Shown here: in pieces, positions 23,851-25,081 of the stretch | Layout of the letters: every line of letters starts with the position of its first letter | Position numbering within the stretch: the stretch's first letter is position 1 | Sequence record: OR844650 | Length of the DNA: 64,000 nucleotides | Reading direction: 5' to 3' (one strand) | From: Escherichia phage ECO103 4-12-1 | Made by a program: the position numbers and the translations under genes | Notes under the pieces: generated by a model | Seen by the model: the letters and a program-made list of their open reading frames with translations, nothing else | What the model was told of the DNA's origin: nothing | Database searches by the model: none

Positions 23851-23883
23851 TTTCAGTATGATATTATTTATAGAACTGAAAAA
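23851..23883 (-). promoter_or_regulatory. late promoter TATAAATA (23866-23873, minus strand) in the loop of an inverted repeat
   Basis: plus-strand TATTTATA; extended motif TATAAATAATATCATACT; stems TTTTCAGT/ACTGAAAA. Confidence 0.6.
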
Positions 23884-23910
23884 TTTGATTATTAAAATGC
23901 TTTAAAATGT

Positions 23911-25026
23911 TTATTTTTTATTGATACCTGAAAGAACATCTAGTTCTTTTAGGAATGCCATATCGTCAGCGGTCATTTCTTCGCTTTCAACAATAGCCTG
24001 ACGGTTGCCAGTGATTACTTTACCTTCTGCAAGAGTTTTCTTAGCGGAAGACTGAACTGCTTGACGAGTGGTAGCAGATTCATTTACTTTAGTACCGTTA
24101 AGTACTGACTTATGGTACTTGCTGAAATCTTCTTTAAGCTTTTCAGTAGGTGAAGTAGCTAGAAGGGATTCCATAATTTGTTTTTGCTGTGCAGTTAGTG
24201 GTTTTACTAGTTCAGACATAATCGCATTACGTGCTTGTGCATCTTCCATAATACGTAGTTTGGTTTTAGCAGCTTTAACGGCATTAGCAGTTTCATGTAG
24301 TTCTTGCTTAACTTGAGCAATTTCATCTTCTTTAGATTTAATTGATTCAGTTAGGGAACGTAGCAATGAGTTTTCATTAAATTGTTTGACATTAAACTCT
24401 TGAGCAAATGCTTCAAAGATTTTACGACCAAACATATTTTGTTTTGCTTCCACTAGATCTTGTTTCAACGCATATAGATTCTTCTGAGTGGTTTCTGCAA
24501 TATATTTAGCAGCACTTTCAGATGTACGTTTGATGAAGTTATTACGAGCTTCAGCAATTTGACGTGAACCTTCAGCAAGTAGTTTAACGCGAGTTTCTAC
24601 TAGTTGGCGTTTTTCAGTGTGGAATTCTTTTAGCTCTTCTGCTAGGATACCGTTAGAAAAATTAACGAATTTACCCATGCATTCATGAAGATGCTTACGT
24701 TCTTTACGCATTTGTTTAACTTCTTCAGCCAAAACAGAGTTTGAAAACGCAGAGAAATTGCTTAGTGTTTTACGTAGAGTTACACGATCTTCAACGAGAC
24801 GTTTTTTCTCTTCATATACAGCACCCATTTCTTCAGCAATGACTTGAGTAACCATCGTGTTCAAACCTTCGGTTAGTTCAGCCAAATCTTGCTGATAACG
24901 GCCTTTCATTTCTTCACGCATCTCTGCGGCTAGTGTATTCTTTTCTTCATTCCATGCTTCCTGAATTAGCTGTTTTGCCTCATCAGAAAGAGATGATTCT
25001 TTTAGAAGCTTTTCTAATTTAGACAT
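23911..25026 (-). CDS. prohead scaffold protein (gp22-like, coiled coil)
   Basis: K/E/A/Q-rich coiled-coil protein between the protease and capsid genes. Confidence 0.6.
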   Translation of the reverse strand: MSKLEKLLKESSLSDEAKQLIQEAWNEEKNTLAAEMREEMKGRYQQDLAELTEGLNTMVTQVIAEEMGAVYEEKKRLVEDRVTLRKTLSNFSAFSNSVLAEEVKQMRKERKHLHECMGKFVNFSNGILAEELKEFHTEKRQLVETRVKLLAEGSRQIAEARNNFIKRTSESAAKYIAETTQKNLYALKQDLVEAKQNMFGRKIFEAFAQEFNVKQFNENSLLRSLTESIKSKEDEIAQVKQELHETANAVKAAKTKLRIMEDAQARNAIMSELVKPLTAQQKQIMESLLATSPTEKLKEDFSKYHKSVLNGTKVNESATTRQAVQSSAKKTLAEGKVITGNRQAIVESEEMTADDMAFLKELDVLSGINKK

Positions 25027-25050
25027 TCGTTCTCTCCTTTAAGTACTGAA

Positions 25051-25081
25051 ATATCTGTACTTCAACATACAGATATTTATA
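25051..25081 (-). promoter_or_regulatory. late promoter TATAAATA (25074-25081, minus strand) next to inverted repeat ATATCTGTA/TACAGATAT
   Basis: plus-strand TATTTATA about 48 nt upstream of the scaffold start. Confidence 0.55.

Follow-up and report, generated by a model that had tools for sequence, protein, structure and literature searches.

Predicted T4-type late promoters and promoter-straddling inverted repeats in a Rak2-like jumbo phage

The most closely comparable late promoters that have been described are those of bacteriophage T4, in which an 8-bp A/T box occupies the -10 position and a -35 element is lacking; they precede structural and lysis genes on either strand, and are served by a phage-encoded sigma factor of the gp55 family. 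The T4 box spans -13 to -6, 32 of 50 late sites being perfect and nine more having A at -13 (Geiduschek & Kassavetis 2010, PMC2988020). For two T4 genes, e and I-TevI, it has been shown experimentally that the Shine-Dalgarno (SD) sequence is masked in RNAs initiated upstream, by a helix whose 5' strand is missing from the late RNA (Uzan & Miller 2010, PMC3014915; Edgell et al. 2010, PMC2988022), and the same masking has been proposed for I-TevII, I-TevIII, segB and Aeh1 mobE (PMC3014915; PMC2988022). Here we consider the late promoters, with the sequence TATAAATA or close variants of it, in a stretch of 64,000 nucleotides from Escherichia phage ECO103 4-12-1 (sequence record OR844650; called the window in what follows), and in particular the inverted repeats in which the promoters of the major capsid and scaffold genes are embedded.

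Nearer to this phage, a late promoter 'ATAAATA' has been predicted for the phages CBB and GAP32, with 35 sites in CBB and a gp55-like sigma factor, while homologues of gp33 and gp45 were reported as not detected in CBB (Buttimer et al. 2017, PMC5259590). Positions 22600-27000 of the window are 100% identical to Escherichia phages vB_EcoM_G17 (hereafter G17), Sharanji and IA-38, essentially identical to slurp01 and about 99% identical to 121Q and PBECO4; the source group is thus Asteriusvirus (121Q/PBECO4/G17-like), that is, jumbo myoviruses of 350-370 kb of the 'Rak2-like' kind. The promoters and repeats of chief interest sit in a minus-strand cluster of head genes, which according to the G17 annotation runs in the order portal, a gene of 75 codons, acidic virion protein, prohead protease, scaffold, major capsid protein. 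Promoter figures given for G17 refer to 133 kb of that genome, 5.6% of which is non-coding, and relatives were gathered from IMG/VR, GenBank phages and metagenomes.

Late promoters of the window

Exact copies of TATAAATA number seven in the window, at 2647, 13919, 23865 and 25074 on the minus strand and at 31035, 38590 and 44629 on the plus strand, a count that is not above chance (10.1 +/- 2.7 in shuffled sequences). Six of them, however, are intergenic, correctly oriented and followed by a gene start 16-56 nt downstream, and because just 2% of the position-and-strand combinations in the window qualify in this way, the placement has P = 4e-10. The first-pass annotation of this DNA was therefore right to place the motif upstream of genes, although two of the positions that it listed, 31077 and 38633, are those of the gene starts (the motifs being at 31035 and 38590), and its position for the capsid motif, 23866, is one base off. 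If the first base is relaxed, NATAAATA occurs 19 times in the window; 14 of these copies are intergenic and correctly oriented and three further ones overlap the last codons of the preceding gene, so that 17 of the 19 abut a correctly oriented gene start, as do 27 of the 31 in G17. Overall, ATAAATA is twofold depleted in the window (19 copies, against 37.5 +/- 5.6 expected), with only two copies deep inside genes, which fits selection against a minimal promoter firing within genes.

Genome-wide motif discovery on intergenic regions had been proposed as a check. When k-mers in 74 oriented upstream regions were compared, without bias towards any motif, with those of the whole 133 kb, ATAAATA came out as the top 7-mer (24 of 31 copies upstream of genes, 45-fold, p = 2e-31), and CTAAATA was likewise enriched (23-fold, p = 4e-8). 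In a position matrix built from 27 sites ATAAATA is invariant (27/27), a figure that must be read in the knowledge that these sites were selected, the same heptamer being recovered de novo by the 7-mer comparison. The base that precedes it is free (A10/C3/G6/T8). Beyond the box the sole informative position is the sixth base after it, which is A in 21 of the 27 sites (p = 7e-6) and which, given that the T4 box occupies -13 to -6, would correspond to +1. No -35 element is seen among these sites, positions -24 to -1 relative to the box all carrying 0.31 bit or less, and positions 9-13 are 52-81% A/T, which is not clearly in excess of the 70% of the intergenic background. The genes that follow the sites include those for capsid, scaffold, protease, portal-region proteins, baseplate, lysozyme, tail fibre and sheath.

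The window also encodes a candidate for the matching sigma factor (Table 1), which by tblastn is about 27% identical to cyanophage gp55 proteins, that of S-PM2 among them. Only residues ~124-260 of this protein align with members of the gp55 family; for the N-terminal ~120 residues no relatives were detected outside jumbo phages, and this segment could be a stand-in for a missing partner such as gp33. The 279-residue protein has no sequence match in PDB, Pfam or NCBIfam.

Taken together, the motif, the geometry of the +1 A, the presence of a gp55-family sigma gene and the virion and lysis genes downstream identify the TATAAATA sites as predicted promoters of the T4 late type, as had been proposed at the outset. 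They would be read by E. coli RNA polymerase together with the phage-encoded sigma factor, the functional box being [A/C]TAAATA at about -12 to -6, with no -35 element and with initiation at the A six bases downstream. The likeness to T4 extends to the box, its predicted position, the kinds of gene served on both strands and the spacing of the A; the differences are that any base is accepted here at the first position of the box (T in eight of the 27 sites), that C is tolerated at its second position (CTAAATA), that the sigma factor has an N-terminal segment of ~120 residues that is absent from gp55, and that the partners gp33 and gp45 are reported as undetected in the related phage CBB. The identification of the motif is not in itself new, having been made for CBB and GAP32 in the same phage group, with the same core and the same placement before structural genes; not found in that paper (PMC5259590) are the +1 A, the CTAAATA variant, the depletion elsewhere and the promoter-straddling hairpins described below.

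It had also been suggested that this phage has an extended late-promoter consensus, on the strength of a longer sequence shared by the capsid site and the site before the acidic core protein gene. The shared sequence is real, an exact 16-mer TAAATAATATCATACT being present on the minus strand at 23855-23870 (capsid) and 26619-26634 (acidic core); the acidic-core site had, however, been mis-registered, since it reads TACTAAATA rather than TA(T/C)AAATA, its box being ACTAAATA and its core the variant CTAAATA. A related sequence reported at 11168 is likewise there (GATAAATAATATCATA), and contains at 11170-11182(+) an exact copy of the 13-mer TAAATAATATCAT that makes up the first 13 bases of the 16-mer. 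The window thus holds three exact copies of TAAATAATATCAT, against 0.7 matches expected even with one mismatch allowed, and a fourth is found in G17 upstream of the gene at record position 257555. As a general consensus, however, the extension has to be rejected, as the 27-site matrix holds almost no information after the box other than the +1 A. The 'ATATCATAC' extension instead marks a small subclass of three to four promoters, including those of the capsid and acidic-core head genes; the orthologous capsid and acidic-core promoters of distant genera keep A-N3-CAT-AC after the box. The predicted initial transcribed sequence of this subclass is thus conserved, and it may be a mark of strong head-gene promoters. 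The box itself at the acidic-core site is ACTAAATA throughout the clade of the window and TATAAATA or AATAAATA in Munch, CBB, GAP32, BF and XaC1, from which it follows that the C variant is tolerated at an orthologous site.

Hairpins at the predicted start sites

At the capsid promoter the two arms of the repeat are 9 bp long and 100% complementary, and the 17 nt between them, which form the loop, hold the promoter (in gene orientation TTTTTCAGT-tc-TATAAATA-atatcat-ACTGAAAAA), and the hairpin has a predicted folding energy of -6.7 kcal/mol (z = -3.4 relative to shuffles). At the scaffold promoter the arms make 11 perfect base pairs (12 with a G.U pair) around an 8-nt loop, and the 5' arm, which overlaps the promoter's 3' half, stops at the predicted +1 (TAT-AAATATCTGTA-tgttgaag-TACAGATATTT); this hairpin folds at -12.3 kcal/mol (z = -4.7), and none of 200 shuffles folds as well. 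Both repeats are thus longer than the first-pass annotation had them. Its suggestion that they may be 5' structures of the late RNAs fails, by contrast: each 5' arm is situated within the -10-like box or upstream of it and is therefore absent from RNAs that start at the late promoter, so the repeats are not 5' structures of late transcripts. It follows that the capsid and scaffold structures can form only in read-through RNA initiated upstream, or in DNA; RNA from the late promoter itself would stay unfolded, whereas read-through RNA with both arms would fold. More generally, in seven of the 27 promoter regions no more than 7% of the shuffled versions fold as well as the native sequence (P = 0.002), and five of these seven unusually stable folds straddle the predicted start. 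The folding z-scores of the perfect inverted repeats range from -2.2 to -4.7.

The capsid repeat is present in Asteriusvirus, Munch, Hallingskeid, CBB and GAP32 (Mimasvirus), BF (Eneladusvirus) and RaK2 (Alcyoneusvirus), where the arms are of the types CAGT/ACTG, CTGT/ACAG and TTGT/ACAA, with two positions changed on both sides and one G.U pair in RaK2; in metagenomic relatives that are further removed the arms are unrelated (TCTTAAA/TTTAAGA in L146, GTAG/CTAC in L145). In the alignment the arms are out of register, and an arm-swap test was therefore used in place of pair counting, with the result that native arm pairs have a mean of -5.1 kcal/mol as against -2.2 for swaps between clades, a comparison of only moderate cleanness, given that the arms consist of runs of T and of A. 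The scaffold stem is paired in 93% of cells across 15 distinct relatives, its loop varying, and 17 of the cells are U.G combinations that pair on the sense strand only; its support is thus conservation together with this strand asymmetry, rather than covariation. Conservation across genera sets both hairpins apart from features due to chance. Just upstream of the scaffold SD sequence, at 25038-25048(-), stands CAGTACTT, the GTACT of which is invariant in 15 of 15 relatives and stays fixed while the neighbouring loop varies; it may represent the genome-wide AGTACT motif discussed in the last section, or else a leader element.

An indication of what such an arrangement can do comes from two sister cases. 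At the T5orf172 gene (20865-21173, 102 codons, PF10544) the 5' arm lies at -5 to +2 relative to the predicted start, and the 3' arm contains the GGAG of the gene's own SD sequence. The layout recurs with ten distinct, covarying arm sequences, that of the window included, the other nine representing ten named phages and six metagenome loci; the arm pairs include TCTTCAT/ATGGAGA, ATATCTCC/GGAGATAT, CTTCC/GGAGG and UACCCC/GGGGUG. Because the hairpins shift between clades, the register of the MAFFT alignment fails here, and pair counting was dropped in favour of folding each sequence separately. In these predicted folds the read-through RNA reaches -5 to -12 kcal/mol, compared with about 0 to -3 for the late RNA. 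The second case is the tail sheath gene, which lies outside the window (in G17): in 11 Rak2-like relatives an anti-SD sequence ATCCTCC abuts AATAAATA, is kept within otherwise unconserved flanks and pairs with UUGGAGGAU ~45 nt downstream. Here the 5' arm lies upstream of the box, and the predicted folds are -13 to -21 kcal/mol for read-through RNA, with the SD sequence fully paired, and -3 to -6 for late RNA. In most of the predicted read-through folds three to four of the four SD bases are paired, the figure being two of four in three of the T5orf172 relatives; over both genes the late RNA comes to 0 to -5.6 kcal/mol, compared with -5 to -21 for read-through RNA.

Candidate sources of earlier transcription lie upstream of both genes. 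Before the T5orf172 operon there is a sigma-70-type promoter close to the consensus (TTGACA-17-AATAAT with a TG extension, 22567-22539), which on its sequence would mark an early- or middle-type unit among the late genes, and directly upstream of the sheath gene in G17 lies an early-type dNMP kinase gene. We also observed that the sigma-70-type promoter follows immediately upon a bidirectional GC hairpin terminator (22581-22600) placed after the capsid gene, the two together occupying 22539-22600(-). The T5orf172 and sheath hairpins would silence translation of the read-through (early or middle) RNA, the late RNA alone being translated, and as modelled this arrangement matches the mechanism of T4 gene e and I-TevI, in that the late RNA lacks the 5' strand of an SD-sequestering helix that upstream-initiated RNAs possess. 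Here the likeness is found at a GIY-YIG-related T5orf172 gene and at a tail sheath gene. It differs from the T4 cases in that the genes are not homologous and that it is predicted from sequence and folding alone; the T4 cases listed in PMC3014915 and PMC2988022 include neither a tail sheath gene nor a T5orf172 gene.

Two further hairpins have a different geometry. The one at 13898-13916 (-13.1 kcal/mol, z = -4.3) contains the predicted +1 (13913) within its 5' arm, so that a late start there would let late RNA bypass what was picked up by the terminator scan and is listed as an ARNOLD terminator in the G17 record; in relatives its orthologue is an ordinary terminator with a T-run and no promoter beside it. 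The hairpin in the 5' untranslated region (5'-UTR) of the 75-codon gene lies wholly downstream of the predicted +1. Its position is kept across genera with three unrelated stem sequences, and the covariation is stronger than at any stem that straddles a promoter.

Table 1. Positions of predicted late promoters, hairpins and the sigma-factor gene in the window
Feature	Position	Strand	Remarks
GATAAATA	7248..7255	-	Overlaps end of terminase gene; 29 nt upstream of gene 5932-7218
GATAAATAATATCATA, third member of the extended subclass	11168..11183	+	110 nt upstream of gene 11286
Second box, GATAAATA	11232-11239	+	Before gene 11286
TATAAATA (13919-13926) and hairpin GGGGAACA-cta-TGTTCCCC (13898-13916)	13898..13926	-	Box 2 bases upstream of hairpin
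AATAAATA	20856..20863	-	Upstream of tail-fibre gene 19214-20824
GATAAATA (21203-21210) running into ATCTCCAT-(7 nt)-ATGGAGAT	21181..21210	-	T5orf172 hairpin; -9.0 kcal/mol
Capsid hairpin, TTTTTCAGT-(17 nt with promoter)-ACTGAAAAA	23849..23883	-	5' arm 23883-23875, 3' arm 23857-23849
Capsid late promoter, TATAAATA	23865..23872	-	Predicted +1 = A at 23859; orthologous NATAAATA in all Rak2-like relatives
Scaffold hairpin, AAATATCTGTA-(8 nt)-TACAGATATTT	25049..25078	-	Core arms 25049-25059 / 25068-25078
Scaffold late promoter, TATAAATA	25074..25081	-	Predicted +1 = A at 25068
AATAAATA	25734..25741	-	Upstream of prohead protease gene
Acidic-core (virion structural protein) promoter	26619..26636	-	Variant box ACTAAATA, then ATATCATACT
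5'-UTR hairpin of 75-codon gene	26931..26975	-	Wholly downstream of predicted +1; -18.4 kcal/mol, z = -4.7
CATAAATA	26979-26986	-	Upstream of 75-codon gene
CATAAATA	30979..30986	-	Upstream of structural gene 28739-30946
TATAAATA	31035..31042	+	Upstream of baseplate-hub-like gene at 31077
Late sigma factor gene, 279 amino acids	37662..38501	-	C-terminal half gp55-like; phrog_12791 E = 2.7e-154, phrog_234 E = 8e-18
TATAAATA	38590..38597	+	Upstream of structural gene at 38633, divergent from sigma gene
Tandem boxes AATAAATA (44612) and TATAAATA (44629)	44612..44636	+	Upstream of lysozyme gene at 44653
AATAAATA	45588..45595	+	Directly 3' of GC hairpin with T-run (terminator annotated in G17)
CATAAATA	49151..49158	+	Directly 3' of GC hairpin with T-run, before open reading frame (ORF) of ~3,300 codons

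What the capsid and scaffold hairpins may do

As a whole, these observations seem to us best explained by late promoters of the T4 type combined with RNA hairpins that are specific to read-through transcripts and that mask the SD sequence at the sister genes, an explanation in which we have moderate confidence. For the capsid and scaffold genes the most likely reading, and here we infer, is an intercistronic structure in polycistronic read-through RNA, which might serve as a 3'-end protector, as a processing site, which the first-pass annotation had also put forward, or as a mild block that would sit next to the ribosome-binding site. Both share the geometry of the T4 e and I-TevI cases and lack the pairing with the SD sequence. 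A hairpin beside, rather than over, a ribosome-binding site has one described parallel, to which that of the scaffold gene may be likened: at seg43(25) of Aeromonas phage 25 there is a stable hairpin just upstream of its ribosome-binding site that does no sequestering, with the differences that no promoter is reported inside the hairpin, and that the phage belongs to another family (PMC2988022). Inheritance of the arrangement as a T4 head-gene feature was considered and rejected, the T4 head region having no promoter-in-loop hairpin; what is found there are terminator-then-promoter layouts (genes 19 and 20), and a gene 23 promoter inside gene 22.

A number of points weigh against this interpretation, most of them specific to the capsid and scaffold genes. 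The 3' arms there end 16 nt and ~9 nt, respectively, upstream of GGAG, and in the predicted folds the SD sequence is unpaired by either core hairpin (in its extended form the scaffold helix reaches just to the edge of AAGGAG); nor do the hairpins look like intrinsic terminators, the stems being A/U-rich, without a U-tract and without a match in the terminator scan. With neither SD coverage nor a U-tract, no known mechanism is demonstrated at these two genes, and the temporal rationale is missing too, because the genes upstream are themselves late genes. At -6 to -9 kcal/mol and with a loop of 12-17 nt, the stem at the capsid gene is weak; it is marginal in the clade of XaC1 and L012, and is absent from L143 and also from PA5oct. 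The scaffold stem is kept mostly by sequence, with one pair changed on both sides, and its shuffle control was not significant (170/500). About 20 of the 27 late promoters have no significant hairpin. Finally, the position of +1 is itself inferred, and the RNA-seq paper on PA5oct reports sigma-70-like promoters only. That data set was considered as a source of late 5' ends and set aside for this reason, PA5oct also lacking the capsid and scaffold promoters.

A role at the level of DNA is one alternative, either as palindromic sites for a dimeric regulator at the strongest late promoters or as a cruciform or hairpin that aids promoter opening by presenting the AT-rich box single-stranded to the gp55-like polymerase. 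An analogy for the latter is phage N4, whose single-subunit virion RNA polymerase uses template-strand hairpin promoters with stems of 5-7 bp and loops of 3 nt. There, as would be the case here, a promoter element lies in a DNA hairpin derived from an inverted repeat; the present case differs in its loops of 12-17 nt and its use of the host polymerase, and in that the G.U pairs on the sense strand favour RNA structure. It fits such a role that the capsid promoter lies exactly in the loop in all clades, even those with unrelated arms, that capsid, scaffold and sheath are the most abundant virion proteins, and that symmetric changes in both arms are equally what a palindromic operator would give. 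Basal transcription with T4 gp55 is moreover strongly dependent on supercoiling and on recognition of the opened promoter (PMC2988020), and it may be relevant that gp33 and gp45 homologues are reported missing in CBB and that the sigma factor carries its extra ~120-residue N-terminal segment. However, G.U (in DNA, G.T) is tolerated on the sense strand only, in the 17 scaffold cells and the one RaK2 capsid pair; A/T stems of 7-9 bp with loops of 12-17 nt make poor cruciforms; the capsid half-sites are ~2.5 helical turns apart with variable spacing; a scaffold cruciform would bury half of the promoter box; and the sheath pairing, spanning ~45 nt, is plainly aimed at the SD sequence. We therefore regard a DNA-level role, in its operator and hairpin versions jointly, as unlikely. 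A comparably low likelihood attaches to the proposal that the capsid and scaffold hairpins are a conserved, non-masking device of the Rak2-like phages, whether as a switch in read-through RNA that controls processing or stability of the head-gene polycistron or as a promoter-opening DNA hairpin for a gp55-like sigma that works without gp33 or gp45.

It might also be that the hairpins are simply terminators or 3'-end stabilisers of the upstream genes, the promoters having been squeezed in for compactness with at most some benefit of insulation. The hairpin at 13898-13916, orthologous as it is to a canonical terminator and annotated as one in G17, lends itself to this view; so do the late promoters at 45588, at 49151 and at the acidic-core site, which directly follow terminators in the same order as in T4 genes 19 and 20, and the distance of 11-27 nt that separates the capsid and scaffold hairpins from the stop codon upstream. 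Yet the latter two have the A/U-rich, U-tract-free stems already mentioned, which the terminator scan missed, and a terminator has no need of the SD pairing seen in the T5orf172 and sheath helices, so that we think this improbable. More doubtful still is the notion that the capsid and scaffold repeats are functionless, as by-products of low-complexity AT-rich sequence or of promoter and leader conservation. By our estimate a perfect 9-bp repeat has a chance of about 2% per AT-rich spacer of 90 nt, and ~17 spacers were inspected; the scaffold stem has no significant covariation; and capsid arms swapped between clades still pair in part, being T-runs and A-runs. On the other side, complementarity is kept in at least five genera with compensatory changes, and with unrelated arms in L145 and L146; loops vary while arms stay complementary; the folding z-scores are -3.4 and -4.7; and the sister cases have an evident target. 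The read-through reading is accordingly the one that we prefer.

Other features of the window and wider implications

The two late boxes before the lysozyme gene are 17 nt apart, and an mRNA from the proximal one would begin right at the SD sequence; no masking hairpin was detected at these promoters in the fold scan of the 27 sites. T4 gene e likewise has two late promoters (Uzan & Miller 2010, PMC3014915; Edgell et al. 2010, PMC2988022).

A quite separate feature is the over-representation, 5- to 24-fold, of AGTACT and related words. The palindrome itself occurs 108 times against 21.8 expected from composition, the highest among the 64 palindromic hexamers (e.g. at 920, 2780, 4572 and 45613), CAGTAC 138 times against 26 +/- 5, and CAGTACTG 24 times against 1.0 +/- 1.0. 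Ser-Thr dipeptides are encoded as AGT-ACT in 64 of 108 cases (19 expected), and relative to a codon-usage model the excess of AGTACT and CAGTAC is present in all three frames and both orientations, on which grounds codon usage was rejected as its cause. The same excess is found in WPEC5, A4, Munch, Hallingskeid, CBB, GAP32, BF, RaK2 and XaC1 and is absent from PA5oct and T4, the positions being only partly shared between relatives. Possibly AGTACT is where a dimeric protein binds, modifies or nicks the DNA; we found no account of its excess in the literature, and no connection with the promoters. Among other palindromes, CCTAGG, CCATGG, CAGCTG, AGGCCT, AGCGCT and ACCGGT each have no copy in the window where ~6 would be expected, and GATC and CATG are under-represented, which are signs of restriction-site avoidance.

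At ~32961-33977 the window has 1,023 bp that are absent from the equivalent position in G17 and 121Q; they hold an ORF for an HNH-type homing endonuclease of 323 residues (32961-33932(-); phrog_559, E = 1e-66), beside an endonuclease VII gene. Next to it, 32123-32960 is a segment of 838 bp with no ORF of more than 45 codons and a locally G+C-rich, structured appearance, which may encode a non-coding RNA; G17 has an unannotated gap of ~835 bp (175903-176737) in the equivalent place, matched by position only. No tRNA match and no significant Rfam match was found in this segment, nor did the Rfam and tRNA scans of the window as a whole give any.

Nothing here overturns existing knowledge. To our knowledge the transcription of Rak2-like jumbo phages, which are under development for therapy, has never been mapped, and a practical outcome is an annotation rule for their late promoters, namely [A/C]TAAATA with an A six bases downstream. 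For the biology of the group, the predicted hairpins would mean that the T4 design of a late promoter set in a hairpin extends to a distant jumbo lineage, and there also to tail sheath and T5orf172 nuclease-like genes; and since the capsid and scaffold hairpins share its geometry but not its target, they would allow a clean test of other functions that a structure of this kind may have.

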